DNA of 52,781 nt, the filler included, from Stramenopiles sp. TOSAG23-6 (Eukaryota), in assembly GCA_900128565.1 (NCBI GenBank). It is 2 parts of 2 records of this genome, joined end to end, with 100 filler letters (N's around TTAATTAATTAA, not from the genome) between each part and the next. Parts side by side here need not be neighbours in the genome. Positions count along the whole stretch, not along the records: positions 1 to 26,496 come from LT635986.1; 1 more part is not named here. One strand, given 5' to 3'. The translations under genes were made by a program, and so were the position numbers. A model generated the notes under the pieces. The model was given only the letters and a program-made list of their open reading frames with translations. It did not search any database and was not told the DNA's origin. Positions 2,612-46,795 of the stretch are shown here, one piece after another (within the stretch, counting starts at the first letter, position 1; every line of letters begins with the position of its first letter).

Positions 2612-2980
2612 ATGCCAAAATCTACCCCAATTAACGAACTCTCTGACATCCAGAAGTCTGAGCTTGCAACTTCATTGGCTGCTCTCGTTCTCGTTGACGG
2701 CGAAAAGGAAATCTCTGAAGAAAACCTTAACGCTGCTATCAAGGCTGCATCTTGCACTGTTGAAGCTTACTACCCTACAATGTTCGCTAGTCTCCTCTCT
2801 AAAACCGATGTTGATGTTAAAGACATGATCAAACTCGGCGGTGGCGGCGGCGGCGGCGGCGGCGCTGGTGGTGCTGGTGGTGCTGCAGCTGAAGAAGCTG
2901 TTGTTGAAGAAGAAGAAGAAGAAGAAGAAGAGGTCGAAGTCGGAAATATGTTCGGCGGTGATGACGATGATGCTTGGTAA
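2612..2980 (+). CDS. RPLP1: 60S acidic ribosomal protein P1
   Basis: SELATSLAALVLVD...ISEENLNAAIKAA..VEAYYPTMFA, Gly/Ala hinge, acidic tail ending MFGGDDDDAW. The true ATG is at 2612, within the longer ORF. Confidence 0.9.
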   Translation: MPKSTPINELSDIQKSELATSLAALVLVDGEKEISEENLNAAIKAASCTVEAYYPTMFASLLSKTDVDVKDMIKLGGGGGGGGGAGGAGGAAAEEAVVEEEEEEEEEVEVGNMFGGDDDDAW

Positions 2981-3656
2981 ACTACCGGTCACACATGTAA
3001 TCACGTTATGAATAGAGCGTCCTATTGTGGATGAGTATTTCTTAGCCTTGAAAATCAGTAAAAAACTTGGGGCAAATCAAATCTCTTGTTTCATATTTCT
3101 TATATTTTAGTTTTAAAATCTTTTTATGATCTTGTGAACTTCTCAAACTCAAGTGAGCTTATGCATGATTAGGGTTAGGGTTACTCTTGAATATGCTAAA
3201 TATATCTAATATAGATAATACGGCTGAGTCTAATATGCTCTAATTTACAAACTGTACTCTCCACGCTGCTAAATTAGATACAGAAAATGTTGTGCTCAGT
3301 AGCACCGTCAGCTGGAACAAAACTGCAACAAAACTGGTATCTCGAAACTTCTTTATTTTGTCCTCTACTTTTTCTCTATTTCACTACTATATTTATATTC
3401 GATTCTATTACATTGTTGCTTGCGTCATTTACTCCGCTTCAATGTATATCATCTGTACGTATCCTCACTGCAACAAAATTGCTGTATTTGTTTTGCAGAA
3501 TTTAGAAAAACACTGTGCCACTGCCACGTGTCAAAATAATAGTCAGTCCGATAGAACGAATTATTGGAATTATCGGTCGTCCAATCCGTAATTAATNCGA
3601 TACCCATTGGCCATTGCTATGAAATAGGTTTAAAACATCTTTCATTCGACAATAAC

Positions 3657-5078
3657 ATGGACAAAACTACACTATTAACACTTCTAGTATTTGCTAGTAC
3701 TATCTTGCTGACTCAGTCTGCTACAGAACCACNTGTGAAAAGAGCTCGAAACTCTGAATCTGAAGAGTCATTGCAAACTCGTGATTTTACGTTGGAAAAT
3801 CTATCGGACGAAAACTCTGATGTATTTACTTATTTGTTAAGTTTTCTCCCGGATTCTGATATTAGAAGNGTCCATGCTGTTTCAAAGAGATTNCGAGGAG
3901 NAATACTCGAGCATATCTATNTTGATTATTATAAAAAGGCAGTACAACGATATAAAGAAGTATATGATAGGATTAACACTTTACCGAGANACCTATTACC
4001 TCTCTCATCTGAGTTNGGNCCATTGCCTTCNGAAGAAGTTGACAAGACAATGNTTCTGCAAGGTTTCGANCGGCTTCNAAAGGCATCAGAACCAATATTT
4101 GTTGCTTTAANAGATATGGAAGATTGGGAAGTGAAATTTGGGTTTTTGGCTTGGGAAGAACAATTTTCAGTAAGAAGAAACAAATTATCAGTTGGTCAGA
4201 ATTACGCAGTTACCTTATTAGAGGATGGNAGTGTATACACATGGGGAAAGGGAATTTTTGGTACACTTGGTCATGGCAGGAAGCATGATGTACTCTTGCC
4301 TAAACGTGTGAGAAAATTGAGAGGTGTGAAAGTAGTAAAAGTTGCAACTGCTTCTGTACACGTTGTTGCATTAGCTGAAGATGGTAGAGTATTTGCTTGG
4401 GGAAATGACTATACTGGTATACCTGCTACTAGCNTCAACTCTTATGCACAACTCTTCCCTAAGCAAGTAGATATTCAAAANAAAACAATAGTGGATATAT
4501 CAAGTGTTCGTGAACACACTGTTGCATTAGCAAAAGATGGTACTGTATACACGTGGGGATCTGGAAAATATGGTCAACTTGGTCATGCTACACTTAGGNT
4601 TAGACATGAATNCATACCTAGACAAGTGGAAGCACTAAATGACGAGAAAGTTGTGAAGGTAGCAGCTGGTGCTTGTCACACTGTTGCATTAACANACGAT
4701 GGCAAATTATTCACATGGGGTTGTGGAATGGCTGGTATTCCTCATGTAGTTCAATATCATGTGAATGCCAGTACACCTACGCAAGTGTTAAAAGGTATTA
4801 AAGTATTGAAATTTTCAGTTGGTATGGCTCACACTGTTGNATTATCAGAAGATGGTAGAGTATTCACATGGGGCATTGGATGTAATTTCCAGCTTGGTCA
4901 TGGTAATGATCATGATCAATTCGTACCAAAGGAAATAGAATNGTTGAAACAAAAGGTTTCCCGGTTAGGACTTGAAACTGATAAAATAGTGGATGTAGTA
5001 GCTGGTAAATATGACACTGTAATATTCTTTGCAACGGGTCGGATTATACGTGTTGGAAGAAGTAATATAATTGNCTAA
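3657..5078 (+). CDS. Signal-peptide + F-box-like + RCC1-repeat protein
   Basis: N-terminus MDKTTLLTLLVFASTILLTQSA; F-box-like VFTYLLSFLPDSDIRxVHAVSKR; about 5 RCC1 repeats (VYTWGxGxxGQLGH, VAAGACHTVAL). Confidence 0.8.
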   Translation: MDKTTLLTLLVFASTILLTQSATEPXVKRARNSESEESLQTRDFTLENLSDENSDVFTYLLSFLPDSDIRXVHAVSKRXRGXILEHIYXDYYKKAVQRYKEVYDRINTLPRXLLPLSSEXXPLPXEEVDKTMXLQGFXRLXKASEPIFVALXDMEDWEVKFGFLAWEEQFSVRRNKLSVGQNYAVTLLEDXSVYTWGKGIFGTLGHGRKHDVLLPKRVRKLRGVKVVKVATASVHVVALAEDGRVFAWGNDYTGIPATSXNSYAQLFPKQVDIQXKTIVDISSVREHTVALAKDGTVYTWGSGKYGQLGHATLRXRHEXIPRQVEALNDEKVVKVAAGACHTVALTXDGKLFTWGCGMAGIPHVVQYHVNASTPTQVLKGIKVLKFSVGMAHTVXLSEDGRVFTWGIGCNFQLGHGNDHDQFVPKEIEXLKQKVSRLGLETDKIVDVVAGKYDTVIFFATGRIIRVGRSNIIX

Positions 5079-14013: not shown

Positions 14014-15636
14014 TTATTTTGACGTTTGTAGTTTTTTCTTTCTTTGTTTCCACCATATTTTAGCCGTCGCCCATTTGTTTTTTTTATCATTTGTAAATCC
14101 TNCGTGACGTTTAGAATTTTCCGTGTTAGGTATATCAACTGTTTGTATATCTGNTGTGTTCTTTTCCACATGGCCTTTTAAAGGTTGATTTTNCTTTGGT
14201 TCTTTTGCTATATTTTCCCTAAAAGATTGATCTTGTATTGGTTCTTCTTCCACCTGTTCTTTTAAAGCTTGATCTTGTATTGGTTCTTCTTCAACCTGTT
14301 CTTTTAAAGCTTGATCTTGTAGCGGTTTTTCTTCCACCTGTTCTTTTAANGTTTGATCTTGTAGCGGTTTTTCTTCCACCTGTTCTTTTAAAGTTTGATC
14401 TTTCATTGGTTCTTCTTTCACATGTTCCCTTAGGGATTGATCTTGGATTGGTTCTTTTTCTACATTTGCTTCTAAAATTTTCATTACTTTTTTTTTCAAA
14501 TTAATTGGTCTTGGAGGTAATGGTGGGACCGAATTTAACAAATTAATGAAGCGCAGTAATTTAAGATGAGAATCACTTTGACCAAACGCTGTCATATCCT
14601 TGCCACCATATTCTATTGACAAGTTTTGTTCGTCTACTAACTCTAACAGAACTTTCTGCATATCTTTTCTTGATCGTACTATAATCAAGTTTTCCTTTAG
14701 TTTTTTATCAATCATTGGCGAAATTAATTTCCAAAGTAGATTGAACGTCCTTGGGGTATTCACTATAACGGTTTTATTCATACCCTTTTTCGGATAATGG
14801 TTACTTATGACATTGTTAAAGTATTGGATGATTTTCCTATTTCTTGCTACATTGGATATAAATTCTCTTATTTTTAGNCCTTTCAAATCTAAAATAGAGA
14901 GAGCACCACCATCTCCACCAGCATCAAGAAAGTTATAAAAGTATTCACAAACGAAAATTTCATATTTTGCTAAATCAGCAAGAGTAAATGGAGAGTTCTT
15001 TAAACTTTGAAAACTTAATTGGCCGACTTTTACACTCCAAATATGCCCTCCAGTTTTGGTTTTCTTCCCTATTTCTGATGGATAAAGTTCTTTTATTGCA
15101 TGAAAATCATTATACGGAATTTTCATCAAGTTATCGACGCCTGTGGCCCTCCGCCAACTCATTGTTTCCTTGTGACGTTTTTCCGCTTCACTCTTTGGAC
15201 TTTCAAATAGGAAGCAACCTAATAGCACATCTTCCATGACCAAAGTCGAGTTTTTGGGATCTTGTGTAAAAGTATTATTCAAAGGATTTTCATGCTTACT
15301 TGGTTTTGAATCAATTTTTTCTACATCCTTATTGCTTGTATATGGTCTAGCTGGGGGTAAACGTCCATTCGGATGCAGTGGTTGTGAAGAATTACTATCA
15401 AACAAATTAGATTTTTTCTCGTCATTTACAAAAGTAGTATTTTTTTGTACGTTTTTATGCTTATCAATACAACTCTTGAGTACATCTATATTGGGCCTAA
15501 TAGGTACAGTTGGAATAGTGGAAAAAGGTAGTTTTGTGAGCTCTATTTTGAATTCCTGATTTCCGTTGACACTCTTTTGAGTTGTCTCTGGAACTAAAAC
15601 CCCGTCAGCTACAACGGTGCCTACTATTTGTGGCAT
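14014..15636 (-). CDS. CRAL-TRIO/Sec14-domain lipid-binding protein with C-terminal repeats
   Basis: ILDLKxL...NHYP...IVNTPRTFNLLWKLISPMIDKKLKENL...NLSIEYGG is the Sec14 signature. Confidence 0.85.
   Translation of the reverse strand: MPQIVGTVVADGVLVPETTQKSVNGNQEFKIELTKLPFSTIPTVPIRPNIDVLKSCIDKHKNVQKNTTFVNDEKKSNLFDSNSSQPLHPNGRLPPARPYTSNKDVEKIDSKPSKHENPLNNTFTQDPKNSTLVMEDVLLGCFLFESPKSEAEKRHKETMSWRRATGVDNLMKIPYNDFHAIKELYPSEIGKKTKTGGHIWSVKVGQLSFQSLKNSPFTLADLAKYEIFVCEYFYNFLDAGGDGGALSILDLKXLKIREFISNVARNRKIIQYFNNVISNHYPKKGMNKTVIVNTPRTFNLLWKLISPMIDKKLKENLIIVRSRKDMQKVLLELVDEQNLSIEYGGKDMTAFGQSDSHLKLLRFINLLNSVPPLPPRPINLKKKVMKILEANVEKEPIQDQSLREHVKEEPMKDQTLKEQVEEKPLQDQXLKEQVEEKPLQDQALKEQVEEEPIQDQALKEQVEEEPIQDQSFRENIAKEPKXNQPLKGHVEKNTXDIQTVDIPNTENSKRHXGFTNDKKNKWATAKIWWKQRKKKLQTSK
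14226..14460 (-). repeat. 39-bp coding tandem repeat (EEPIQDQALKEQV-like, about 6 copies)
   Basis: Repeated ttgatcttgtattggttcttcttccacctgttcttttaa-type units. Confidence 0.9.
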
Positions 15637-15855
15637 ATTTAGTATTGCGTAAGAAGACGTAGTATAGTTACAGTAGAAGTTTCACAAGCAGTTGTTGTTT
15701 ATAAAAAAGTTCCTATCGCCGGTTTTTTTTACGGTTACAAAAAAATAAACAAAAAGAGTGTTACTAACCTACTACTATCACAAATCGTAGTATAATACTA
15801 CAAATAAATAGTACAATTTTCCACTAATTTGCATAGAAACTAACTCGATAGCGTG

Positions 15856-16941
15856 ATGGGTAAGAAAAAGGGCAAGAAAGCAGCAAAAGGTCCAGTGGTG
15901 AGTGGACCAAGTGTTGAAGTTTTAGAGCAAAACTACAAAACTTCGTGTAAAAATATTGGTGCAAGTCAAGAGGCAGTGGTACTTAAAAACTTTAGTGGTG
16001 GTGGCGAAGAAGATGGAAAAGGAGGTGTATTTTCACAGCTTAATATCGGTGAATGTAATCTTAAAGCATTAGGCGTGCGAGCATTGGTGTCCGCTATCCT
16101 TGGGAAAGGAGATGGAATGTCCGGAGAAACGTACGAAAATCTCTTAGCAATTCGTTTATGGAGTTGCAATATTGGTGATGACGGAGCTGTTGCAATTGGA
16201 GACCTATTTAGGAACGGTGGAAGTTCCATTCGCATAGCCATGTTGGAATTACAAGATAATAATATTGGTCCTCAGGGTGCAAAATCGTTGGGAAGTTCAC
16301 TTGGTAAGTCAGGATATGGACTTTTGACACGATTGGTACTAGATAACAATATAACTCTTGGAGCAAATGGAGGTCAGGGGTGCATAGAGCTTTGTAAAGG
16401 GCTTTCCACAAATTGCAGTATAAAAAAATTGTCACTGGGACATTGCAAACTTCCCCCTCAAAGTGGACATGGACTAGCAAGAGTCCTTGGTAATAAAGGT
16501 TCGGTACTGGAAGATCTTCATCTCCCCCATAATGATCTGGGTCCTGATGGACTACTAGCAATATCCCAGGTTCTTAAAAAAAATTCGACATTAAAACGAC
16601 TCAATCTTTTTGATAATAAACTTGGCGAAAAATTTGACTCGGAGCATAAGTGCACCGGAGAAGAAGACGATGATGGTTCACAATCAACGTTTAATGTACT
16701 AGCTGAGGCCCTAGCTGTGAATACTTCACTCGAGTTCTTAGACATCGATCAGAATCACATGAACTTACCCGATGTTGAAGCTTTGAAAGAATCATTATCA
16801 CAAAATAAAACTTTATCTGTTTTTCTTGTTGATCATAACTTACCTGCTGAAGTCTTTGCTGCCCTAGGGAGAGATGGATCATCTGGAAAGAAAAAGGGAG
16901 GAAAGGGGAAAAAGAAGAAAGGAAAAAAAAAGAAAAAGTAG
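15856..16941 (+). CDS. RNI-like leucine-rich repeat protein with Lys-rich termini
   Basis: Repeated LxxLxLxxNxIGxxGA units, with KKKGKK ends. Confidence 0.85.
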   Translation: MGKKKGKKAAKGPVVSGPSVEVLEQNYKTSCKNIGASQEAVVLKNFSGGGEEDGKGGVFSQLNIGECNLKALGVRALVSAILGKGDGMSGETYENLLAIRLWSCNIGDDGAVAIGDLFRNGGSSIRIAMLELQDNNIGPQGAKSLGSSLGKSGYGLLTRLVLDNNITLGANGGQGCIELCKGLSTNCSIKKLSLGHCKLPPQSGHGLARVLGNKGSVLEDLHLPHNDLGPDGLLAISQVLKKNSTLKRLNLFDNKLGEKFDSEHKCTGEEDDDGSQSTFNVLAEALAVNTSLEFLDIDQNHMNLPDVEALKESLSQNKTLSVFLVDHNLPAEVFAALGRDGSSGKKKGGKGKKKKGKKKKK

Positions 16942-17042
16942 TCAGAATATTTGTTTATTGTTTTCGTTGTTTCACTTTTTATAATAAATTCTATAGTGTA
17001 CGTATTCAATTTTTACTGCAATATTACTACAATATTACAATA

Positions 17043-19096
17043 TTACAGTCTTGAAACAAGAAGGTTCTGCTTTCTTCCCAACTGACTTTCTTTANTGTGT
17101 TTACGGACAGTCGCTTTGATCTCTCTTGCCCAGACTTTGCGTTTGTTACCTGATAGTGGAGCTCTCAGCCAGGTAAAATGATTTCGGGGAAGTTTCTTTA
17201 ACTCATCAATAACAGGAGTTGATATTATGGGTACACCTGCACGCTGGATTGTTTCTTCAAACTTTGCTGGATGTGCTGTCAGTACAGCAACAGTTGGAAT
17301 ATTTGTATTAGTTGACTTACATNGAAATTTGTCAAGTGCAAAAATTCCAATGTACCATGAAAAATATATTTTATGTTGGACATTGGTTAGTGATGGAATT
17401 TGGAATTAAAAAAAAAATGAATTAAAATGATGAAAACATACATGGCAGAATGTGGGCAAAGTATATATTGGTTTTCTCTGAATACTTTTCTAATAGTAGC
17501 CAGAGTGTCAGTATCAGATACAGCAATTGCTGTGAAAATATCCTGTAATTTCTCTAATAAAATATTTCCTAATTGAACGCCGCGATTTTGTTCAAATTCT
17601 GTCATTATATATTTTACTTGTCTTGAGTTGTGACCACTTGCAAAATATAAGTATTGTGAAACATATAAAAAAAAATAAAATATTTGTTAGGTACGAAATT
17701 TTCAGATGCAAAAAAAAAGTTTGAAATTCAATTTTGAAAACAAACAAAACTCTTTCTAAATTGTATGCAAATTGTATATCCATAGCGGGTGACTCTGTTT
17801 TCTGATTAATACCAAACGACATATCGCCAAAAGTAAGTGTTCTATATACAACATCATTAGCATTCGTTGCACAACAAATATTTCCTATTGGAACGCCCAT
17901 GCACTTGGCTAAAAATCCACCCATTGCATTTCCCATGGCTCCAGAGGGAATAATAAAGTTCACAGGTCCATTTGCTTCCTTGTTCATCTGAGTGTAGACC
18001 CAAACATAGTATGAACTCTGCGCCATAATGCGGGCCCAATTAATTGAATTTATAGAACAAACATGTAGTGGGAAAAAAAAAAATGTGTAAAAAATGTTAC
18101 GTACGAAATTTGGTACAAACAAAAAAANTTCGAAATTCAATTTTGAAAACGAACATTGTGTGAAGAAGTAAATTCCGAGTCTAGAAATATCTCTTTTAAC
18201 GCTTCCGCTTGTTCGTCAGTATTNCCTTCCGTACGAAAAACGTGAACATTAGGACTGTCTACAGTTGTCAGCTGCATTTCTTGTACGGAAGTATTGTGAA
18301 AAATATTTTTTCTTTGAATAAAAAGTTTGTTAGGTACAAAATTTGGTACAAAAACAAATTAGGCAAAAAATCCAATTTTGAAAATGTACAAGAAACTCNT
18401 TGATGAGGATAAAGACAGAATATTGAAACAAAAGGGCAATTTTTCACTGCAGCGACAGCTGCTGGTCCTGTATCTCCGGAAGTCTCTACGATGATTGTCG
18501 CTTGACCGTTTCTTTTTTGAAGATAATAATTGAGCAACTGAAAATATTGTGTACAAAATGTAAACTATAAAAACAGATAAAAACAGTTCTGTTATAAAAT
18601 ATTGCGCTCTTGATGAATTGTACAATAAACAAAATACGCAACGATTTGCTGGCCTATGTCTTTAAATGCGAGTGTTGGGCCTCTACCAGTGTCAAGCATC
18701 ACCCTTCCACCAACTTTCAACAGAGGTAAAGGAGGTTCACAACCACCGTTAAAAGTTTGAAATCCGGCTGTTGTCATTTTCAGGCAATCATGGAGAGGTA
18801 TANCCGTAAACTTGTGAATGGTTTGTGCACAAACCTGAGCCTTTGATGTAAATAAAACATGTAGTTTAGAAGTTAGAAACGTTATTTCATTGAAGAAATT
18901 AAAATATTGTAGAAACAATACTTACCATTGTGTACTTTTGGGCTGCCCAGTTTCTGAGCTCAGTAAGTGTGTAGAAAGGCAAAGTTTCTGGTACATAAAG
19001 ACCTCCATCTGAGGCATATGCGGAAAGCAATACCTTCTCAAATGATGTACCCCTGTCGCCACCTCTGGTGGAACAAAATAAAGGTGGGAAAGACAT
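17043..19096 (-). CDS. thrC: Threonine synthase; 7 exons, 1 canonical and 5 non-canonical or diverged introns
   Basis: STRG, ASDGGLYVP, GPTLAFKD (PLP lysine), ETSGDTGPAA, LYP..VS.VQE.Q.TT, SINSINWARI, PSGAMGN, SPAMDI..YNLER, CPHSA.G, TAHPAKF. Ends ...LLVSRL-stop. Confidence 0.93.
17350..17441 (-). mobile_element. Diverged non-canonical intron (92 nt, GT...CAT)
   Basis: GCC AT|GTATGTTTT...CACTAAC...CATGGTACAT|T GGA gives CPHSA-IG. The palindromic core is lost, while the ends and CTAAC are kept. Confidence 0.85.
17649..17745 (-). mobile_element. Non-canonical intron (97 nt, GT...CTT, TT/TT direct repeat)
   Basis: GTT TT|GTTTG...CGTACCTAAC...CACAATACTT|A TAT gives NLERV-L-YF. Confidence 0.87.
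18063..18154 (-). mobile_element. Non-canonical intron (92 nt, GT...CAT)
   Basis: CAC AAT|GTTCG...CGTACGTAAC...CACTACAT|GTT TGT gives HN-VCSINSINWAR. Confidence 0.87.
18289..18389 (-). mobile_element. Non-canonical intron (101 nt, GT...CTT, TT/TT direct repeat)
   Basis: TCT T|GTACATT...TTTGTACCTAAC...CACAATACTT|CC GTA gives YPHQxVS-S-VQEMQLTT. Confidence 0.87.
18542..18637 (-). other. Intron with uncertain boundaries (96 nt GT...TTT, or 105 nt GT-AG at 18538-18642)
   Basis: An intron is required between KDIGQQI and LLNYYL. Both boundary choices are in frame. Confidence 0.6.
18841..18925 (-). other. Canonical GT-AG spliceosomal intron (85 nt)
   Basis: ATG|GTAAGT...TTCTAAC...CAAAG|GCT CAG, in frame and unrelated to the repeat family. 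Confidence 0.88.
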
Positions 19097-19409
19097 TTCA
19101 ATAAATAATGTCGGATAGAAGAGAGATGAAGAAAGTGACGGTCTTGAAAGTGACGGTCAAGGTCGTTCAAAAAAAGGTCAAAGTTTAACAGCGACAGGTT
19201 TGTTTCGAGATTAGAATTCTTGGTACGAATTTCTCTAGTTAAACTGATTTAGATTATTTATAGCAGTCAAGTGGTTGATACTATACGGACAACCTTACCT
19301 ACCACAACCGTTTAACCTTTTATACTGACAGTTTGATAAAATAAAGAGCAAAGTTATTGTACAACATTGCAATCTGGAGAGCGCTTTCTCGTGAAAAGCT
19401 AACTATAAA

Positions 19410-20264
19410 ATGCCTAGATTAATTCGATTTCGTAATCCACCTCCAAAATTAGTTGTCACTGTTGATGAAGAGAATACAAAACCTCCGCTGCCTCCTTCAA
19501 GCCCAGTTAATATTGAACGTCATCAGCAAGAGATACGAAAGCAAGAATTCTGGAAAACAATGGATGATGTCGCAGCTATTTATTCCCCTATTATTACAAA
19601 AAACCGTTATCGGACATATGAAACTAGTAGTCCAATGAGTGAAAGTGGGAGTTTTTCAACCACATCAACAACACCAACAAGTGTCTTGAATTCCTTTGAA
19701 AGATCTGCACCTTCTTCGCCAGTATATGCTCGCCAATCTTTTGTAGATGAGAAACGACCGAATTTAAATTATGTTGCTTCCCCAGTCATGTATAACCAAA
19801 CGTGCTTGCGTTGTATTCCTGAGATACTTGAAGAAGATTCAGTCATAGAACCTTCGAGAAGACGTCAGGGTTCAACGGATTCTGTGAGCTCTCAAGAACT
19901 TCCCTTTGACGTTGGTACAATATCCCCCTTATCTGCGGGTAAAGGCAGTAACATTACCAANATTGATGCTACTCTAGATGGCCCAATGGTACCAAGTTAT
20001 TCTTCAGTAGAAAAAGTGTATAGTAGAAAAAGTAGCGAGGGACGGCTCGATGATTCACTCGGAACAGCTTTCAAAAATTCGCACAGCCTGCGGAAGTGCC
20101 TGGAACTCGCCATGCGCACAGCAATAGAAGATAGGGATGTTACTGAGATGTGGGATGTTATAAAGGGGGCACAATATATAGGAATGTTTGATACAGCGAA
20201 AAAAGGATTTCAAATCCTGGATGATTGGAGACGTGGGGAAAAGGTTGAAGAGGCAATTGTTTGA
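19410..20264 (+). CDS. Hypothetical Ser/Pro-rich protein
   Basis: 284-aa ORF with an ATG in aaaATG context and a helical C-terminus. No family recognised. Confidence 0.65.
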   Translation: MPRLIRFRNPPPKLVVTVDEENTKPPLPPSSPVNIERHQQEIRKQEFWKTMDDVAAIYSPIITKNRYRTYETSSPMSESGSFSTTSTTPTSVLNSFERSAPSSPVYARQSFVDEKRPNLNYVASPVMYNQTCLRCIPEILEEDSVIEPSRRRQGSTDSVSSQELPFDVGTISPLSAGKGSNITXIDATLDGPMVPSYSSVEKVYSRKSSEGRLDDSLGTAFKNSHSLRKCLELAMRTAIEDRDVTEMWDVIKGAQYIGMFDTAKKGFQILDDWRRGEKVEEAIV

Positions 20265-20607
20265 CTTTGCCTCGATGTCAATTGTAAAGGTTTCTTATGT
20301 ATTTCACTATTTAATTATAAAATTACTTCAATGTATTCAATGTATAGTTTATACCAATATTATGATAAATTATCGTACATAGCAATATAAAATAAAATGT
20401 GCAAATAACAAAACTGAGTCTATTTTTAGTATTTTTACTTTATAGTTTTGTGTCGTTACCCTTCACACAGAATTACACTTCATACTAGCATAGCAATGCA
20501 CTAGACGACTACATTGATCACATATGAAGTGTATAAGATACATAAACATCTCCTTATTTGGTATGAATCAAGCTCTTTCAACTATGACCCTGTAGCTCTT
20601 TGGTGTT

Positions 20608-20910
20608 TTATTTTGTTTCTTCAAGATTCTTCATCCGCAACTTCAACTCAGCTAATTGCTGCCGCAAGACGTCTTGCTCTGTTGCAACATCTTTGCTAAG
20701 CAAAAGAATGCTTTCAGTCATTATGCTATGGCCTCTAGAAAAGTGATCATATATGTAAGTATACGCCAGAAGTGAAGAAATCGTAAATCCAAAAGCAAAA
20801 CCCGAAACTTTGCCTCCAAAACTACTTTTTGCAATGGAGCTGCTGAAAGATCGACCGGTGGACACCGTTCTATACAGAAGGGGGCTGCGACGTACCAAAC
20901 TGACTATCAT
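20608..20910 (-). CDS. Small putative mitochondrial membrane protein (presequence, one TM, coiled coil)
   Basis: Arg/Ser-rich acid-free N-terminus (RSFSSS), GFAFGFTISSLLAYTYIY TM segment, C-terminal heptads. Confidence 0.6.
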   Translation of the reverse strand: MIVSLVRRSPLLYRTVSTGRSFSSSIAKSSFGGKVSGFAFGFTISSLLAYTYIYDHFSRGHSIMTESILLLSKDVATEQDVLRQQLAELKLRMKNLEETK

Positions 20911-21214
20911 TTAAATCTAATACGTGTTTTGAGAAACAGCTGTTATATATCTATAGTAACTTCGTCTGTTTGAGATTGGCGAAGACCTTTTAGTGCGTGT
21001 GTATTTACTTTTTTCCTTGCTCTTTTTTTCTCAAGTGCCATTTTTTGACAGTTTTGTGAGATGGCCACCCAAAACCCCGGTAACGTTTAAAATCCGTGAC
21101 TGACTTTCTTGTTGTTTGTAATTATACCTGCGTTATCTACCTGCGTTATACCATAGTAATATAATTTTGCTGTGATTTTCTCTTCTATCCATTGATTGAT
21201 AACAAATATTCACA

Positions 21215-21985
21215 ATGAAATACATTAAAAGGTTAAACCTACTAGTTTTTGGTGTTGTTTTTATCTCCATTATAAAAACTGCTTGCTCTAGTGGTTCTGG
21301 TGATGAAATTCCTGGAGTGATAGAAGATTCTGAAACTTTTTCCCATGAACTTTCTTCTCTCAAACCTTTACCGCCAACCGAGAACGACAAAGAATCACAA
21401 AGCCCGCGTACAAGTGTAATAGATGTTAAAGTAGATAAAAGCGTCCCCATTCCCGACAATTATTACGATTCTATTACATATGAAATATTAACTGACCCAG
21501 TGAGTACTAGAAGAAGCGCTGAAAATGTACCTGTCCTTAATAGAAGCACTTTGTTACGTGTTTTACGCGAATCTCAGAAAAGAAATCCGCCTCTTATGTC
21601 TGCAAAACATCCATTTACCCAAGAGTCTTATACTATGATGGATATAGAGCGTGCTCACAATTTAAGAGAAGAAATCCGAATTTTTTTTCAAGAGAACGCT
21701 ATGGTTGAAGAGTATGAAAAGGCTCAATCGCAAGAAAGGCAAGAAAGGCTTACACGAGAGCAAGAAAGGCTTACACGAGAATATGGAAGACCAGAAAGAA
21801 ATCTACGATATGGAATACCAGTTTATGGAATACCAGATGATGTAATAGTAGATTATGAAATACCAGAAAGACTCTACCGGATGTTAAGACGTCGAGGTCA
21901 AATAACTCGTCTTTTTTTCTTTCTTCTAATAGCGTTGAATGGTATATTTCTTATATGTTATTTTTGTTGGTATATTAGTNCATAA
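21215..21985 (+). CDS. Signal-peptide + U-box-like domain + C-terminal TM protein
   Basis: Hydrophobic N-terminus; IPDNYYDSITYEILTDPV...NRSTL...HPFTQE resembles the U-box consensus; C-terminal LFFFLLIALNGIFLICYFCWY. Confidence 0.7.
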   Translation: MKYIKRLNLLVFGVVFISIIKTACSSGSGDEIPGVIEDSETFSHELSSLKPLPPTENDKESQSPRTSVIDVKVDKSVPIPDNYYDSITYEILTDPVSTRRSAENVPVLNRSTLLRVLRESQKRNPPLMSAKHPFTQESYTMMDIERAHNLREEIRIFFQENAMVEEYEKAQSQERQERLTREQERLTREYGRPERNLRYGIPVYGIPDDVIVDYEIPERLYRMLRRRGQITRLFFFLLIALNGIFLICYFCWYISX

Positions 21986-26596: not shown

Positions 26597-26650
26597 TTGT
26601 ACCTAACGATTTTTTTTAGATTTTTTTTGAAATATTTTTCCAAAATACAT
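26597..26650 (+). mobile_element. 3' half of non-canonical intron, cut by contig start
   Basis: TTGTACCTAAC...CAAAATACAT|ATT CAA. Confidence 0.8.
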
Positions 26651-29600
26651 ATTCAATCAATAGATGCTGGCCANGAGTCTGTTGTTGCAATTTTAAAAGA
26701 TGAAATTGAAATATTAAATAAAGATTCTTTACAATTGCGAAAAGACGTCACAAATTTAAAAGAGAAATCTTCAAAAAGTTCATCGAATTTAAGCGAAGCT
26801 ATACAACAACATAAAGAAGAAATTGTAAAAATTAAAATTGAAAATGAAAACAAAATGAAAAAACAAAAAAATGAATGTGAAGACAAAGTCCACAATTTAG
26901 AAACTCAAGTATCAGAATGGAAAAAAACACATGAAATTATAGTACAAAAATTTGATTCTAGAGAACAAACTCTTCTTGAAAATCAGAAATCGATTACAGT
27001 CCATGTTTGTTTTATTTTTTTTTTCAATTTTTAAAAAAAAAAAATTTGGTTTTTCGTACGACATTTTGTACCTAACAAAAAAATCGAATTTTTAATTTTT
27101 TTTCACAAAACATCATCAAAAACAAATTTCGGATTTGACTATACGACTAAAAAACGAAAACAATTTAGCAATAGAACGGTTACAATCGAATCATCTGGAA
27201 GAAATGGCAAAGCTGCAAAAAGAAAGATATTCTTTAAAAGTTGAATTGTCAACCTACATTCAAAAGTTGAATGATGCAAAAGTTGAAACAAAGGCTCTGC
27301 AGAGTAATAGTGTAGATGATGAAAATCGGTTGAATACGCAAGTATTGCAGTTAGAAGATTTACTCGAGGATACTATAAAAAAACACGAAATCGTATTGAA
27401 AGAGAAATCAGCATCGCATTCGGATGCTATAGCTAAATTATGTGAGAAATATACTCTAGAATTAGAAAAGTTACGTCAAACATCAAAGTCAAATTATCAA
27501 ACCGAACTCGATACAATTCATGAAAATCATTTGAATACATCGAAACAATTAGAAATGAAGGTGTATGTTTTATATGAATTTCTAATTTAAGTTTTTTTCA
27601 TACGAAATTTCGTACCTAACGATTTTTTTTTGAAATATTTTTTCACAATACGTCATTGAATGGAAAACAAAGTACGAAAATGACGTTCAAAAAAATGAAA
27701 TAAAATTTGAGGAAGAAAAGAAACATCATACATTAGAAATTTCACATATTTTGAAAGAGCATAAACATACAATAACATGCTTACAACAAAAATATTCTGT
27801 GGATGTTGAACGCTTAGCTCAGCATTATAGCAACCGCACAGACCAAGTTCAGAAAATAGCTGGAAGTTATAGAAAGGAAGTCAAACGCCTTGAGAATGAA
27901 GTAGATGAATGGAAAATGAATCATAATCGTCTGATTGAGGAGCATGTAAGTTCTCGTTTTTTTTTCAATTTTTTTTTTTCAATTTTTTTTTATAAAAATG
28001 TTGTACCTAACAAAAAAAAATGAAATATTTTTACAGTACATGAATCTGATGAAAAAGAGAGGATTGCGACATTTCAAGATACACTTCAGCGACTCGCCGA
28101 TCNTCACAAAGATGAACTTTCAAGATACGTTGAACAATTTGAAAATGAGAAAGCTATTTCATTGAATAGATTACAAGATTCACATAATGATGAGGTGACA
28201 CGTGTCCGATTACAAATTACAAATTCACAGAATTCACTTTCAGATGTAACGGCAACTCTTGAAGAAAAGCACAAAACCGTCCTGCTAGAAAAAGAACAAA
28301 ATTACCGCNATAAAGAAGCAAAGTTGATTCTTGAGCATAATCATGAGAAAGAGAAAGTTTTATCTGACTTGAGAAAACAACATTCNATAGAGATAGACCG
28401 CTTAAACACGCAAATTCGTCGTTGGAAAAGTTCTTATGACGATGCTCTCGTAAGGAACGATCTTATTCTTGTGGAGGGAGAAAAAATAAGGAAAGATGAA
28501 ATGTCTGGTATTACACAAAAATTTGAAGAGGATTGTAAAGAATTGAAATTGAAATTCGAAATAGAAAAAAAAAGCGCCATTGAACAACACGAAATAAAAA
28601 ATAAATCAGATCTATCTCGAATGGAAAGAATGGCTACAATGTGGAAAGACTCTCATTATAAAGCAACTCAACAACATGAAATTTCATTGAAAGAGCTCAA
28701 AAGAGATCACGATGAATTGGTCAAAGAAAACCATCAGCTTCAATTGGAAGCACTACAATTTCGTAATCAATACATTGATCAAAGCTCCAACTATGAACGA
28801 ACTTGTAAAATGAGTGATATAAGAAAGATTAAAGAAGAGTTGTACGAATATAAAAAAACTTCTGTATCTCTTGAGAAATACAAGAACGATATGAAACAAA
28901 AAGATGATACATGTATGTTTTATTTTTTTTTTCAATTTTGATTTTTTTTCGTACGGAATTTTGTACCTAACGAATTTTTTTAGAATTTTTTGAAATATTT
29001 TTCCATGATACATATTCAAAAGAAATTATACAAATGCAAAAAGACAATAAAAAAATAATTTTGGAGATGGAAAGAAACAAAAAAACACTTGAAAATTCGN
29101 TAGCTACGAAAATTNGTACCGATTCATCAGTTCATTCTCAAATTGATGAAAAAATGAAAATTAAAGCAATTATTTCAGGACAAACNTTTTTGAGTACAGA
29201 CGATTCAAAAACAACTGATGAGCTTCAGTGTAATGTATGTTTTATTTTTTTATTTCGATTTTTTTTCATACNAAATTTCATACCTAACGTTTTTTTTTTT
29301 TNAAATATTTTTTCATAATCCATATAAACAAAGTTAAGAATTTTCAAATCGTTGTGAATGAATGGAAATGTAAATATGATGATGTTTTGAACAGAAACAA
29401 AAGTTTGATTTGTAAACATGAAAATGTATGTTTTTTTTTTTGTATGAATTTTTTTTTTATAAAAATTTTGTACCTAACAAAATTATTTTTTTTTGAAATA
29501 TTTTTTCACAATACATGTAATTTCAATGTTGCAGGAGTCGCATAAAAATACATTACAAATGGTGACAGATAGCTTGATGAAAGAGTTTACCATTGAAAAA

Positions 29601-32582
29601 ACGACNGTGGAAAAAATGTGTAAAGATTCTCATGAAAATTTGGTACTCGTTTTGGTACAAAATTGTAAGAAAAAATACGAAGAGGAAATCAAAGAATTTC
29701 AGTGTACAATTCAAATAATGAAAGAAAATTATGAAAAGTGTAAAAAAGAACTTGAGATTCTAGATGAGAAGCACCAAATGTATTGTAAACAAACATTGGA
29801 AAGTCAAACTAANGAGTATTCAAAATTAGAAACTGACTCTATTGCAAAGATTAATTCTTTGCGACAAGAAAAGTTTTTATTGGAAGAAAACCTTAAAAAT
29901 ATAAAAGAAACACACCGAGATGAGATAGCTACCATTCAGTTGAAGAGTGCATCATCTGACGATTCATTGAAAATAGCTTTACANACTCAAAATGAAAAAA
30001 TCAATGAACTTATTGCACAAAGTTTGAAACATGAAAAATCGGAAAGTTTTCATACAAGTACCATACAAAAGTACGAGGCTCAATTAAAATCCATGCAAGA
30101 AACAATAAAGAAAAAATCTGAGCTGCGGCGTACGACNGATCGTCATAATAAAAATCAGATTTTATTATTGGAGGAAAATATTTCAGAATGCTTACAAGAA
30201 CAAAAACTTGTAAAAAAAAGGTATGAAGAAAATCTTGCCAAACTTGAAGAGAAACTTAATGATAAAGAAACCATTTTGAAAAATGTAAATGCACAACACC
30301 TCAATACTGTTGATGATTTACATCGCAAAATAGCTGAAATCTCAAAGGAATATAAAGCTTCCCTTGAAACATATCAAACAAAAAATGATGAACTCAGTGA
30401 AACTATAACTACTTGTAAGAAAGCTAATTCCCAATTAGAAAGAAAAATGATGGAAAGACTCAATAATTTAAAAAAAAAACAAGATGTTGAAATGACGAAA
30501 AGATTGAATTACATAAAAAAATCACAAGATATTGAAATATCAGAGATAATTGCCAAACATAAGTCAAATATTGCGTCACTGAAAAAATCCCAGAATTTGG
30601 TTAAAACACAAGAACTGAGGGAACAGTTTGAAATTTATGAAAAAGAATTAAACAATGTTAGAAATGATCTCTGTGTTGCAAATGACAGAATTCAACGTGT
30701 ATGTACGTTTTATTTTTTTTCAATTTCGAATTTATGTTTCGTACGAAATTTTTTACCTAACAAATTTTAGTTTTTTTTTTGAAATATTTTTCCAAAATAC
30801 ATTGAACGAGTCAAAGATATTCGAAAATGAAAAAAATGAAAAAACGAAAGAAAATACAAAGATCAAAGATGATTTGGATAAGCTTCATATAAGAGAACAA
30901 AAGTATCAATCTCAACTAAATCTCACATTGAAAGAATTGGAAAAAGTACAGATGTGTATGTTTTATTCTTTTTTTCAAATTCGAATTTTTTTTATAGTAA
31001 ATTTTGTACCTAACAAATTATTTTAGATTTTTTTTTTGAAATATTTTTCTAAAATACATCATTAGCCAGAGAAAAAGAAAAGAATTTTTTCCTCATGACA
31101 CCTCCACCAAGAAAAAAACCTGAGACATCTCAATTGAATAATCCTTGTCATGTGGATACATATCCAATGTCATCTCTAGATAATCATTTGTTATATACTG
31201 ATGAGAAGTATGGCGATTGTCAAATTTCATCACCTGAAGAGCTACCAGTAACTGCATTGGATGAAAAGGAACATACAAATATATCCGAAGCTTCAAGTAA
31301 TACATTGATGAAAACGAATAAAATTTCATTACTTTTGAAAAACTATTTTTCAGCTTGGAAAGATGCAGTTCAAATGTCGGTAATCGAATCTCTGTTAGTA
31401 GACTGTCGAAAATGCGCAAAAGAAGAATTGAATACAACACTAATAAAAGCNGAGAAAGATATGCAGTTTCGTGTTTCTGAGATAGAAGATGCTCATGTAG
31501 TGGCGTTTGAAAAATTAAAAGAATATACACAAGTTGAAATGCAGAAAAAAATGAAAGATGTGCATAAAAAACACGAAATTCAGCTACAAACTGAAAGAGA
31601 AGAAGCAATCTCAAACATGCACAAACAATTACTCGATATAGAAACGCAGCATAATATAGATCTACAAAATGTACAAAAAGAGGCGTACGCNGATATGCAC
31701 AAAAAGTTAAATGAAAGAGAAACGCAGCATAATATAGATCTACAAAATGTAAAAATTGAAAGAGAAGAAGCAATNTCAAATATGCACAAAAAGTTAAATG
31801 AAAGAGAAAAAGAGTTCAAGATACAAATGAAAAATGCACAACTTAAACGAGACTCGAAAGTAATATTTCCTGTAAAAAAAACGGGATGTAAGATGGCTTT
31901 CTTCCTTATGCGAATTATGATTGTCAAAAAATCTGCTGATGCAAGAGGGAAAGCCTGGGCCTTCCAACGTCTGATTGCAGAAACTATAGGACATCGTCGT
32001 GAGGTGACATTAAATAAATGGGAGCATGATCGTGTAGTTGCAATGCAATTTCATGCAGAATATACAACTAAACTGAAAGAAGCAGAAAGAAAGCTTGCGT
32101 TGGCATTAAATACAAACGACAATGTCGACGAAGAAAGTCTTGGTATATTAGATAGGTCTGCAGGATCTGTTGCTGTAGATAACATTCAGTTACGTCAGCG
32201 ATTGCATACGGAAGCAGAAAATGCTGAGAAAAGAGAAGAAGAATTTTTGACAAAGTTGGCAGTCTTACAAGCTGAACTACAATGCAGTCGATCNCTTACT
32301 AATCAAAATGCTTCAAATATTGAAGATTCAAATTGTCAGCCAAAATTGTGTAATTCACCAATGACAGTCTTACGCAATATAAATAACAAATACAATATAA
32401 CGGAAGAAATTGTTTCGTGCTCTGATTNAAAGACGTCTCTACGAGAATTTGGGCGAATTTTATTTGACGAAAAACTCCGTAAAACGCAACAAGACGAAGA
32501 AAATATTTTGGATGATGAAGAAAATATTTTGGATGATGATGATTGGATGGAGGGCGAAATCACATTAGCTGAGATACAATAA
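26651..32582 (+). CDS. Large coiled-coil protein (5'-truncated); exons 26651-27004, 27114-27562, 27654-27945, 28042-28912, 29014-29234, 29324-29425, 29517-30702, 30803-30955, 31060-32582
   Basis: E/K/Q-rich heptad ORF pieces form one continuous frame after removing 8 element copies. Confidence 0.8.
27005..27113 (+). mobile_element. Non-canonical intron (109 nt, GTTTG...CAAAACAT)
   Basis: GTC CAT|GTTTG...|CAT CAA in frame. Confidence 0.85.
27563..27653 (+). mobile_element. Non-canonical intron (91 nt, GT...CGT, GT/GT direct repeat)
   Basis: AAG GT|GTATG...CACAATACGT|C ATT GAA TGG in frame. Confidence 0.85.
27946..28041 (+). mobile_element. Non-canonical intron (96 nt, GTAAGT...CAT)
   Basis: GAG CAT|GTAAGT...TTACAGTACAT|GAA TCT. 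The CAG 5 nt upstream is out of frame. Confidence 0.85.
28913..29013 (+). mobile_element. Non-canonical intron (101 nt, GT...CAT)
   Basis: ACA T|GTATG...CATGATACAT|AT TCA in frame. Confidence 0.85.
29235..29323 (+). mobile_element. Non-canonical intron (89 nt, GT...CCAT)
   Basis: TGT AAT|GTATG...CATAATCCAT|ATA AAC in frame. Confidence 0.85.
29426..29516 (+). mobile_element. Non-canonical intron (91 nt, GT...CAT)
   Basis: GAA AAT|GTATG...CACAATACAT|GTA ATT in frame. Confidence 0.85.
30703..30802 (+). mobile_element. Non-canonical intron (100 nt, GT...CAT)
   Basis: GTA T|GTACG...CAAAATACAT|TG AAC in frame. Confidence 0.85.
30956..31059 (+). mobile_element. Non-canonical intron (104 nt, mismatched flanks GT/AT)
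   Basis: ATG T|GTATG...AAAATACAT|CA TTA in frame. Confidence 0.83.
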
Positions 32583-32800
32583 AAAAATATCGCGGAGAAA
32601 TTTGATTGGATGAAAGTATTTATAATATGAATAAAGACAAATAGTATATATATTATCTCAAAGATAAAACAATTGTGTTATTGTCTTTCTTANATATTGT
32701 TTTCACTGATAAGATATAAAAAGGAACANTGTTTTCTACTTGTACGATATAATAAAATTGATGGCCTAAGTTTAAGAAATTTTATGGAAATAATCGTTTT

Positions 32801-35800
32801 TTAACTGATAGCAGACTCAAAGTCATTCATCTCTAATTGGTCNGCCGAAAATCTATTCCCAATCCGATGAATGCTCCCATCTACTGTATATGATGTTTTA
32901 CGTTTTTGACCAACGTCAAATTTTGGTTTCCCTGTCATTTGATCTCTTTGGTTTTTTGGTGANGTAAAAGATTTAGTGCTTAACCTATTATTATTTTTAT
33001 CATTTCGCATAGATGATTTACTATTTTGATGATTTGTTGAAGTGTTATTGTCCAATAGAACAGGTAATAGTGAACCAAGACCGGAAACGATCGCCTGATC
33101 CTTTGCAGTTTTGCCAGCAACATCAAGACTCAGCATGAAATTATCAAATGCCTTAGAGGGTGATGGGGTCCTCTGACTGTTCTTTGTTTTTTTTCTGCGT
33201 TTAGCAATTGCTGTACGTTGTTTACGAATGATAGGCAGTCCTTCTCCTGGTCGCATACCAACATCATGAGCAGCTGGCGACACAAACTTGTTGTACTTGG
33301 TGTTAATACGAGGATTCCGTTGTCGACTTGCCATACCCCCACGAGGCGTATATTTTGTGTGCTTTAGAATAGAATATATGTTTTGGGTTTCACCTGGAAT
33401 ACCTATTTCAGAGAGGTATTTAGAAATTTCAAGAACTCGGCAAACTTGTTGCACTTCTTGTTGAAAAACAGGTTGAAGCAAATGATCGATAGCAGAATGT
33501 ATTAGATCCGTATTGTACCCTTGTCCAGNTTCCGCTAAAGCACAGAGAGCTTCAGCAGCACTGGAACCTGGAACCTTCGAGGTAACAATATGGACATCTT
33601 TGCGAAGGCGTCTCTTTGCTTCAGCGCCGTTACCTTTTTCATTAATACAACGATTTAGAAGCTTTGTCCAGTGTTGCTTAAATTTAGACCTTGAAGGAAT
33701 GTAACCATTTCGATAATACTCTACAAGATCTGCCTGCTTTGATACTTTAGATGTTAAACCAGGGTACAATATTATGGCAGAAGCCCATTCTCGAGCCTCC
33801 TTTTCTTTTGGGTCTTCTTGCAAATTCAAATCTCGGCGAATTATCCGGCATTGTTTGCGAGAAATAGCACCTCGCATTATGCGCTGCATTGATTTTGCTG
33901 CATCATGTTTACTCATCTTGCGGTATTTGCGCCGGCTCTGGCGCCCACGCGAAAGTTTCTGGATTTTTATCGCATTTTCATTTTCCCATTTGTGCTGTAA
34001 CTCGCGTGTAGTTATTTTCTTGGACTCAAGATCCAATTTTACTTGACGTGCAGCATGCCGTCGAAACGAACACTGTATTTCAAGTGCAGCTTTTTCCCTT
34101 TGCTTATTCATTTTTCTTCTTTCTCGTTTTACATGAGCTTGCATATCATCGTGCTTTTTTAATACGGCATCTATTTTTCCTTCATTGCTAGTGTACATTT
34201 CCTGCAATCTAGCAATAGTTCGTCTTTTCTTCTTTGATAATATCTTTTTCAAATCCGAGTCCATATTATTTCTTTGCATTGAGCCTCGAGCAANGCATTG
34301 TATTTTGATGGCTGCTTCTTCTCTCAACCATTCAGATTCCTCCTCTTCGTCTACAGGAAACTTATAATCTATATTTGGTTTTGTTAATTTGGTTTTGTCA
34401 ATATCGAATTTGAGACTCCATCTTTTGTCACGCCAGGATTGCAGAGTTGATAAATAATCGGGATTTATAGGTTTGTCACTTTGATCCCTAGCCAGCTGCA
34501 CACATTTCTCAAGATATTTGATTGATTTTTCATATTCTTGCATAGTATGGAGACTCAACGCGAACTCGTACAGAACATGAGGATCATTTGGAGATAAAGC
34601 TGCTGCAATAGAACGGCAATCTAGAGCAATGATATTATCTCCTCCTTTAGAAAAGTCTTCTGCAAAACGAGAAAATCCATGAGCACTCTTGCGCCAACCT
34701 TTCCACGAATTGGTGTTTCCATTATACTTATTTGCTTTAATCTTTGAAAATNTAGGTTTCCAAATGGAAGTGAGACCATCATCTTGCCATGGTTTTGATT
34801 TCATGGATTTGGGATTATCATTAGTATCTTGAACTTTGTGACGAGTGGGGTATATTTTTAATTCTTTGTTTCTTGCAATTAAAAAACATATGTGCAATGG
34901 TTTATAATCTTTCGGTGGATTAGACAATATATATGAAAAGTAGACTGCAGCCTGAGAATACATACCGAGATGTTGCATGATGGAAGCTGAAAGAAAAACT
35001 ACTTCATTAATTTTTGAAAATGACGGGAATTGTTTGATCATTATACTTAGAGTTTGCGCAGAGGCTTCAAAAGCACAAAATTGTAAATATAGACGGGCCA
35101 TTTCAAGCCAAAATGATGGGTTTGCAATATTCATCAATGCCTTTGATGCATATTTGTACGCGGTAAATGTAGCTTGTAGGCGTGAATTTGTTTGTTCTTT
35201 TTTCCACTCAACATAATGAGAGCGACCTAGCGCATGCCACACTCGACCAGTAGCAACGCTTTTATTTTCATCAATAGCGCGTTGAAATGTTGAAGCAGCG
35301 AGGTTGTAGTCCCCATCATTATACTGTTTAAATCCAAGAGAAATTAGCAGTTTGCTNCGCTGTTCAACATTTTTTGTCCCACATATATGTCGCTTCAGTT
35401 CAGATTTAGTCATAGTCACAGCAGTATCCCTTTTCGCAACGGCATCCTTTACCACACCCCACTTAGTTGATTGATCGATAAGATTGACAGCGAGTTTTTG
35501 TCGATTTAAAGTAATCTCTTCAACACCAATCATCTCATCATGTTTTGCCTTTTTTAATCGACTTACATTTAGATTACCGGAGTCACTTATGTCTACAAGA
35601 GGCTGAAGTTTTAGTGCTGGAATGGAGTCTCGGTTTCTTTCAATAATGAGGGCGGTGGATAATTGTGCATACATTTTCTGCCGGCGATAATGAAGCAAGT
35701 CACCCGCATCTTGTTGCGCTTGTGCAATCCGTTCATCTGAACCATTCTTAGCTGCAACTTGCACTTCAAGCTGTGCAGCCTCCACTGCTTCACGGAGTTG

Positions 35801-37582: not shown

Positions 37583-37776
37583 CACAACTAAATAGATCAC
37601 AAAATAATCATGGGAATACTGTAATAAGTGAGCTTGTAGGATTTTATTGTGATGTACTATCTTCGATCCTAGAATTTCAATGTCAAATTGTAACTGTAAA
37701 ATCTTTTGACTAGTACTTACTGATCGATTTCGATCCCAGGATTTGAGATTTAACCTGATACACTCATTTGAATGTC

Positions 37777-38319
37777 ATGACAGCCTTCACTGGCGTGAAT
37801 TTACGACAGGGTGGTGGTTACTGGGAGCTCTCTGGACCTATGCCGATCAATAGATCTTCTTCCAGTTGCCGAGCTTGTAAAAAAGTTATTTACAAAAACT
37901 CGATGGTTATGGTCCGTGATGGACGAAAAATGCGTTTTTTCTATCACCAAGAGTGCTTCAGGGGTGATGCAGACCCAAGGACCCAATCGGGCGAAGGCAT
38001 TAATAGTACGTTTACAGATCCAAATTATAAAGAATATCACAAAGAATTAGCTCCAGATGTTTCAGGCCTAGAAAAAAATTTAAAGGTTTTCCAACCGGAA
38101 CCACCGGACGACGTTGGACACGGGAAGTGGTCAACAACTCGTGGATATCAACCTGTAGCTTCCTCCGTATGCTATATGGGTAAACATGGCGCAACAACAA
38201 CAACAAGACTCGTTAGAAGTTCCCATGTTGGTCCTAAAAACTCACCCACAAAAAATAAAACTCCTTCAAAAAATCGCAAAACAAAAACTACAAAGAAGAA
38301 AACTAAATTAAAAAAATGA
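37777..38319 (+). CDS. Small protein with PARP-type zinc-finger-like motif
   Basis: SSCRACKKVI...FYHQECF (CxxC...HxxC) and a basic tail. Confidence 0.65.
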   Translation: MTAFTGVNLRQGGGYWELSGPMPINRSSSSCRACKKVIYKNSMVMVRDGRKMRFFYHQECFRGDADPRTQSGEGINSTFTDPNYKEYHKELAPDVSGLEKNLKVFQPEPPDDVGHGKWSTTRGYQPVASSVCYMGKHGATTTTRLVRSSHVGPKNSPTKNKTPSKNRKTKTTKKKTKLKK

Positions 38320-38329
38320 CTGGAAAAGG

Positions 38330-40821: not shown

Positions 40822-41058
40822 ATAAAGAAATAGGGTTAGGGTTTTTAAATAACAAAATAGCGTCGCTTGATTTTGGAGGGTTAGAGAAATAGAAATATTT
40901 AATATTCACTTATTAAGTTTTATGATGTAAATGCTTTACATATATAATATATAGTAATCTAGTTTATAAATACATTTGAAATGAATTAGCATTGAAGAAA
41001 GGGTATAATTATGTAAACTTGAGCAGNACAGATGACTTCCGCTCCTGACCTTTTCCAG

Positions 41059-41601: not shown

Positions 41602-41795
41602 GACATTCAAATGAGTGTATCAGGTTAAATCTCAAATCCTGGGATCGAAATCGATCAGTAAGTACTAGTCAAAAGATTTTACAGTTACAATTTGACATTG
41701 AAATTCTAGGATCGAAGATAGTACATCACAATAAAATCCTACAAGCTCACTTATTACAGTATTCCCATGATTATTTTGTGATCTATTTAGTTGTG

Positions 41796-46577: not shown

Positions 46578-46795
46578 AAAACGATTATTTCCATAAAATT
46601 TCTTAAACTTAGGCCATCAATTTTATTATATCGTACAAGTAGAAAACANTGTTCCTTTTTATATCTTATCAGTGAAAACAATATNTAAGAAAGACAATAA
46701 CACAATTGTTTTATCTTTGAGATAATATATATACTATTTGTCTTTATTCATATTATAAATACTTTCATCCAATCAAATTTCTCCGCGATATTTTT

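Follow-up and report, generated by a model that had tools for sequence, protein, structure and literature searches.

Canonical and probable GT-NT introns in one threonine synthase gene of a MAST-3-type stramenopile

The threonine synthase gene and its introns

The window analysed here, a stretch of 52,781 nucleotides of Stramenopiles sp. TOSAG23-6 (filler between its two parts included), contains the threonine synthase gene thrC, which is interrupted by six introns (Table 1). Because the 18S gene of this genome carries the MAST-3 FISH probe site, we regard the organism as a MAST-3-type stramenopile. Once the six introns were taken out, the coding sequence had no internal stop, while retention of any one of them led to an early stop. 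The product was identical to its closest homologue at 343 of 490 residues (70%), and a domain search returned a THR4_C match. An independent seawater DNA run covered the gene with all six introns and no clean joint was seen in it; the three exonic differences among those listed were all synonymous. The intact frame and the synonymous differences make it unlikely that thrC is a pseudogene, and to judge from its sequence it is probably a working gene. The closest homologue carries an insertion of 10 residues directly before GPTLAFKD that other homologues lack, and this may be a mis-called intron in that relative.

Table 1. Features of thrC and splicing genes; positions count along the window unless a contig is named, and a slash marks the predicted cut at an exon-intron border
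Feature	Position	Strand	Size	Description
thrC, threonine synthase gene	17043..19096	minus	1491-nt CDS, 496 aa	7 exons
Intron 1	18841..18925	minus	85 nt	G/GTAAGT...TTCTAAC...AAG; canonical, not family-derived
Candidate branch box CTAAC of intron 1	18872..18876	minus		A at -33; putative role
Intron 2	18542..18637	minus	96 nt	Best boundary GC/GTATTTTG...CACAATATTT (GT-TT); TATAAC at -51
Intron 3	18289..18389	minus	101 nt	Family; TT/GTAC...AATAC-TT; GTACCTAAC at 18337-18329
Intron 4	18063..18154	minus	92 nt	Family; AT/GTTCGT...CTAC-AT; GTACGTAAC at 18104-18096
Intron 5	17649..17745	minus	97 nt	Family; TT/GTTTGT...AATAC-TT; GTACCTAAC at 17694-17686
Intron 6	17350..17441	minus	92 nt	Diverged family copy; AT/GTATGT...CACTAAC...GGTAC-AT; CACTAAC at 17392-17386
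U5-U2-U1-U4 cluster	contig C1146 (L024:9-645)		within 640 bp	
U2AF2-like gene	contig C433 (L106:664-2628)			Two RRMs, each like RRM1 of human U2AF65, and a UHM

Only intron 1 has an AG acceptor (GT-AG). The best boundaries of the other five lack it, introns 2, 3 and 5 being GT-TT and introns 4 and 6 GT-AT. An earlier note on this DNA had described intron 1 as ordinary, and its signals and length bear this out, as does the closest homologue, whose alignment runs through it gap-free. Eight homologues likewise aligned without gaps at the junctions of introns 2-6. Boundaries were scored against a profile of 28 homologues, with all in-frame GT/GC-AG pairs within 60 nt as alternatives. For intron 1 the called pair was the best of 12, its AAG acceptor standing only 0.7 bits apart from a CAG 6 nt further. 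Introns 2-6 had 25, 14, 4, 8 and 4 such pairs, of which the best AG-ending ones cost 8.7, 21.2, 64.3, 16.7 and 23.4 bits, and a narrower boundary scan found no in-frame AG alternative for introns 3, 4 and 6. The boundary of intron 2 is the least secure of the six: its best GT-AG alternative adds one residue, which all eight aligned homologues lack, and a shift by one base (TA-TT) leaves the protein identical. In introns 4 and 6 an AT-AC register ties with GT-AT.

Introns 3-5 were thought to belong to a repeated family, and their best identities to other family copies (0.73-0.75, against shuffled maxima of 0.52-0.56) agree with this. Intron 6 reached 0.64 against 0.58; as judged earlier, it has lost the palindromic core and kept GTATGT, CACTAAC and TACAT, although TACAT is not a fixed block. 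The family 3' end is TAC plus two bases that usually copy the last two bases of the exon; in introns 3 and 5 these two bases are TT, like the TT of the preceding exon. On its sequence, intron 6 is still family-derived despite the missing core. Intron 2 had been described as almost devoid of family likeness, which holds for its unalignable body (0.52 against 0.54 for shuffled sequence) but not for its ends: among 1953 background pieces of AT-rich sequence, 0.26% reached its 3' block score and 1% its donor score. It is probably a family copy too. Intron 4 reads GTAAC rather than CTAAC in the assembly; run contigs carry at position 18100 the base that gives CTAAC, though these contigs may partly represent copies at other loci.

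Shallow contigs of three RNA runs, a pair of which came from one sample, and of the DNA run were aligned to positions 14480-21970. No spliced joint was seen there in the contigs of the RNA runs, which read unspliced across introns 1, 2 and 4, entered intron 3, covered intergenic DNA as well and look like DNA carry-over. Because these runs were shallow and available as contigs only, the missing joints are no evidence against splicing.

The intron family and its duplicated target bases

In the incomplete and fragmented assembly (21.1 Mb in 6236 contigs), the core GTACCTAAC had 11,047 matches, a count inflated by duplicated contigs, compared to 179 for the reversed control. Exact removal of core-anchored copies in 639 kb opened the frame, with at least 25 codons on each side, in 130 of 141 cases; the controls gave 35 and 46 when the cut was shifted by one base and 29 on the antisense strand. 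A search by donor and 3' block alone yielded 259 candidates in 824 kb, of which 212 had an open frame and 159 passed stricter filters (100 dropped). The last two bases carried no weight in the search that gave these 159 frame-confident copies. The copies start with GT in 148 cases and end in AT (128), TT (11), GT (7), AG (7) or other dinucleotides (6). Identity to the nearest neighbour had a median of 0.79 and was at least 0.9 in 16 copies, and many similar introns lay at unrelated sites, as in introners and MITEs. Canonical-type introns, by inspection, were few in the same 824 kb, with about four clear cases against the 159-212 family copies; they combine a GTAAGT or a non-family GTACGT donor with CTAAY and YAG. 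A signal-based search for them gave 7 matches against 6-11 in controls, which is no excess, and the genome-wide pattern G/GTAAGT..CTAAY..AG had 57 matches, below its control of 199. An ab initio HMM and an unrestricted GT..AG search were too noisy for counting them.

In 110 of the 159 copies the intron closes with the same two bases as the exon before it. Among the 31 non-AT ends, 18 were duplicated upstream (mean of 2.5 and maximum of 9 in shuffles), and all 11 TT ends came after an exon TT; we therefore regard this as a real 2-bp duplication, like the target-site duplications of introners and MITEs, beyond a mere preference for AT. Where the two dinucleotides were unlike, a departure from AT was seen 36 times in the upstream copy and 5 times in the downstream copy (p=8e-7). 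The frequency of mismatches at exon position -2 differed with codon position, at 19 of 44 for third, 17 of 70 for second and 4 of 45 for first positions. When the downstream dinucleotide was kept instead of the upstream one, two copies acquired a stop, and a Myb-like QCRERW motif was broken. From the 36 to 5 asymmetry, the third-position bias and the two stops, it follows that the upstream copy acts as exon and that the cut is GT...NT and not NT...AC. Some copies end in AG, so the family is able to yield canonical introns: at L009, L038 and L093, three family introns preceded by AT end in AG, and two preceded by AG duplicate it.

The 106 AGs found within 15 nt of the ends of 152 non-AG family introns were spread over the three frames as 32, 34 and 40, with 32 in frame, and thus had no frame preference. 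That one cell handles both acceptor types, as the earlier note proposed, is indirectly supported by this lack of an in-frame AG excess, together with the intact 496-aa frame of thrC, the stops caused by retained introns and the synonymous exonic differences.

The family ends are inverted over 4 bp, with 3 or 4 of the 4 bases paired in 125 of the 159 copies, but they did not covary (49 perfect pairings against 49.8 in shuffles of the 159). No family ends were found around the DDE_Tnp_4 or DDE_3 transposase frames examined, these being the two transposase families searched; intact frames of 420-508 aa lacking family ends lie at L208, L209, L213 and L214. Telomere-like TTAGGG/CCCTAA repeats occur within 6 of the 259 candidate copies (L048, L052, L055, L063 and others), and the branch box CCTAAC is itself one register of such a repeat.

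The thrC introns had been read as being of different ages. Their sequences have indeed diverged to different degrees, but divergence is the sole basis for this reading and gives no dates. The accompanying claim, that what survives decay marks the splicing signals, failed when old and young copies were compared. By an age proxy independent of the core (110 against 49 copies), retention of CTAAC fell from 96/110 to 28/49 in the older copies and that of the right GTAC arm from 90/110 to 33/49, so that CTAAC was lost no more slowly than the core. Grouped by core score, CTAAY was present in 99 of 112 high-core and 7 of 15 low-core copies (control 0-3), and CTAAC was not singled out in the profiles by core score or by duplication state. 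Single A and T bases were kept at 76-99% throughout. The decay profile is confounded, because A and T survive everywhere in this AT-rich context, and the branch A is the sort of base that persists there regardless; survival of the donor and the 3' block was partly built in, as both had served to find the copies. Metagenome relatives of thrC were found at 80 loci, 78 of them at 33-41% identity and each as a single aligned piece. The GC-rich locus L127, which has a frame break, shares 0 of 6 intron positions and is too distant to date intron 1.

Branch box, snRNAs and splicing factors

CTAAY precedes the end by 33-45 nt in both intron types. Of the 133 family copies that have this box, 121 place it at a distance of 31-50 nt (median 39), while 13 of the 159 have no TAAY in the branch window; in the handful of canonical-type introns a CTAAY-like box lies 33-47 nt before AG. 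Internal YAGs located 10-19 nt past the family box are bypassed (15 cases), as are two CAT triplets less than 31 nt from the box in thrC intron 1. Because this spacing is common to both types, it is the best argument for a single U2-type route.

The genes of the U5, U2, U1 and U4 snRNAs stand head to tail on one contig, with a duplicate, which suggests that they may form one transcription unit; U6 lies elsewhere. No U2-U1 cluster was found in metagenome contigs. The U2 GUAGUA, the U5 loop and the U6 ACAGAGA agree with the Rfam consensus. U1, in comparison, starts with AAACGUACAUGG where the consensus has AUACUUACCUGG, the changes being at positions 2, 5 and 9, which face donor +7, donor +4 and exon -1. 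Among the 159 family donors, +7 is T in 155, +4 is C or T in 155, both of which pair with the changed U1 G, and exon -1 is T in 139. The GT donor is thus complementary to U1, as in major U2-type introns. On average 9.1 of 11 positions form Watson-Crick pairs with this U1, against 6.9 with the consensus, and by computed pairing it beats the consensus at 154 of 159 donors (median -9.9 against -1.9 kcal/mol); the donor motif helped to find these copies but had been derived earlier and independently of U1, and exon -1 was unscored. At thrC intron 1 the order is reversed, with -2.3 kcal/mol for the U1 of this genome and -11.0 for a standard U1. The U1 gene scored 54.1 bits, below the Rfam cut-off of 69.5, and its loops have diverged. 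No second U1 was found by Rfam (41 of 253 candidates scored) or by BLAST in this fragmented assembly, which may miss one, and none of the 17 standard-U1-type 5' patterns lay within a U1 fold (scanned at 16 loci, one of which overlaps the 17th).

A Prp8 gene and one U2AF2-like gene were found. The former (L103:4088-10000 and 2727-4169) contains no family intron core and has one frame break near clustered Ns. U2AF1 was absent among 16 zf-CCCH matches (11 loci read) and from two matches of a sequence motif, in an assembly that is incomplete.

A probable single spliceosome for two kinds of intron

The match of U1 to the donor, the standard U2, U5 and U6 motifs and the shared CTAAY spacing support the GT cut and a single U2-type spliceosome. 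The U2-type mechanism favoured by the earlier note is supported on these grounds, but not by its decay argument. We think it likely that one U2-type spliceosome removes both the canonical introns and the GT-NT mobile family. Intron 1 of thrC would be one of the few ordinary G/GTAAGT...AG introns, and introns 3-6, probably also intron 2, would be older or younger copies of a mobile intron family of about 95 nt, presumably of transposon origin, with the layout exon-NT / GTAYGTTTT ... GTACCTAAC ... TTTTTCAMAATAC-NT /. In this layout NT, mostly AT, repeats the last two exon bases as a target duplication of 2 bp. The major (U2-type) spliceosome would remove both types from pre-mRNA, presumably as lariats: the changed U1, if expressed, would pair with AU/GUAYGUUU and direct the cut before GT; U2 would use the A of a putative CUAAY branch box at 31-50 nt from the end; and the branch spacing together with the U-rich/CAMAAUAC block, not the first AG, would place the 3' cut after the duplicated dinucleotide (AT, TT, GT, sometimes AG).

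We further suggest, more tentatively and as a possibility that we would not yet favour, that a selfish family retuned the only major spliceosome of its host. U1 would have been rewritten to the family donor and its target T, and the check for a last-base G at the acceptor dropped, possibly through loss or change of U2AF1. The ancestral G/GTAAGT-AG introns such as thrC intron 1 would persist as a minority, about 2%, that is matched poorly.

Other explanations have to be weighed against the single spliceosome. Where the duplication is intact, the register NT...AC gives the same mRNA as GT...NT, which would account for the tie in introns 4 and 6, and the same pieces could be removed in this AT-AC-like manner by a minor spliceosome or a variant. 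We consider this highly improbable, because the upstream dinucleotide acts as exon, by the asymmetry that speaks for GT...NT over the AT-AC register of U12-type introns, by the third-position bias and by the stops, and because U1 pairing fixes the GT register. No match to U11, U12 or U6atac was found, a weak negative given the incomplete assembly and prokaryotic controls. Ordinary GT-AG splicing at neighbouring AGs, yielding proteins with small insertions or deletions, could draw on the in-frame pairs available to all five non-AG introns of thrC, on the low cost of the alternative in intron 2 and on the 7 family copies that do end in AG. However, the losses in bits concern conserved segments of the protein, and the AGs near family ends showed no preference for a frame, so that this is very unlikely.

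It is also unlikely, in our view, that two machines are at work, with a standard U1 missing from the assembly for the rare GTAAGT-AG introns and, for the family, the changed U1 acting alongside divergent 3'-end factors. Intron 1 fits a standard U1 far better, the genome is incomplete, and the divergent U2AF paralogues of Fritillaria borealis offer a precedent (PMC13326754). Yet a single U1 sequence came out of the searches described above, no standard-type 5' pattern sat in a U1 fold, the branch spacing is common to both types and one U2AF2-like gene was seen. The inverted ends of 4-6 bp with a direct repeat resemble elements removed by other means, either by structure-guided RNA excision as in euglenids or by DNA excision as in ciliate IESs. 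Such a non-spliceosomal route is hardly credible here. Five thrC introns, all but intron 4, had no stable fold (z -1.6 to +0.8), the ends do not covary, and the conserved end-joining base pairing of euglenid nonconventional introns was not found. The orientation is strictly sense, U1 matches the donor, and the independent DNA run retained all six introns.

The single U2-type route has partial precedents. Introners of Micromonas, Aureococcus and others supply the donor from the element and take the acceptor from duplicated target bases (PMC11282704). The present family is similar in being a high-copy, short, repeated intron with the same division of donor and acceptor; unlike there, where the co-opted acceptor is AG, it is here mostly AT, also TT and GT, and the duplication is 2 bp, the inverted ends only 4 bp, and no partner transposase was found. 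In Fritillaria borealis and F. pellucida, non-canonical U2 introns are, as here, transposon-like, with 3' AT as the commonest end, a YAY-like last triplet repeated upstream, a small canonical minority and no minor spliceosome found (PMC13326754). In F. borealis, however, introns mostly start with AG, U1 versions share identical 5' ends, and adaptation came through U2AF duplication and m6A (PMC13326754), whereas the present family retains GT, the change lies in the U1 sequence, and the host is a stramenopile rather than an animal.

U1 snRNAs that co-evolved with atypical donors are described in Entamoeba and Mastigamoeba (bioRxiv 10.1101/2022.06.08.495308). Our U1 shares the ACGUAC hexamer with that of Mastigamoeba and the extra A facing +7 with that of Entamoeba; unlike both, it has a further C9-to-A change facing the last T of the exon, which comes from the insertion target, and the passages on those cases connect them neither with a repeat family nor with non-AG ends. 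The introners of Amoebophrya (PMC7789003) and the nonconventional introns of euglenids (PMC11282704) are likewise non-GT-AG and repeat-derived, with direct and inverted repeats. These have inverted repeats of 8-20 nt or conserved end-pairing and variable ends, whereas here the ends are fixed in register and unstructured; U1 was not found in Amoebophrya (PMC7789003), and here it is present and matched. Target-duplication acceptors in introners, 3'-AT introns in Fritillaria and changed U1 5' ends in Archamoebae are thus already published, and the added evidence is the U1 matched to the family donor. Open-licence PMC/bioRxiv texts yielded no account of this U1 or of GT-AT introners in MAST-3; supplements of introner surveys might list this genome.

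Few features of splicing are as conserved as the AG acceptor and the 5' end of U1. An AT-ending majority with standard GT, U2, U5 and U6 would isolate the last-base check as the sole change, and such a lineage offers a natural experiment on the choice of the 3' end. The matched U1 would be a concrete mutual fit of host machinery and mobile intron outside animals, and thrC, because it holds both intron types, is a compact substrate for tests. Gene finders that assume AG will mis-model Stramenopiles sp. TOSAG23-6.

Elsewhere in the window, positions 26597-38383 and 40995-52781, from contig C36, form a perfect inverted duplicate of 11.8 kb. It is probably an amplification or assembly artefact, and several more contigs show the same mirror pattern.
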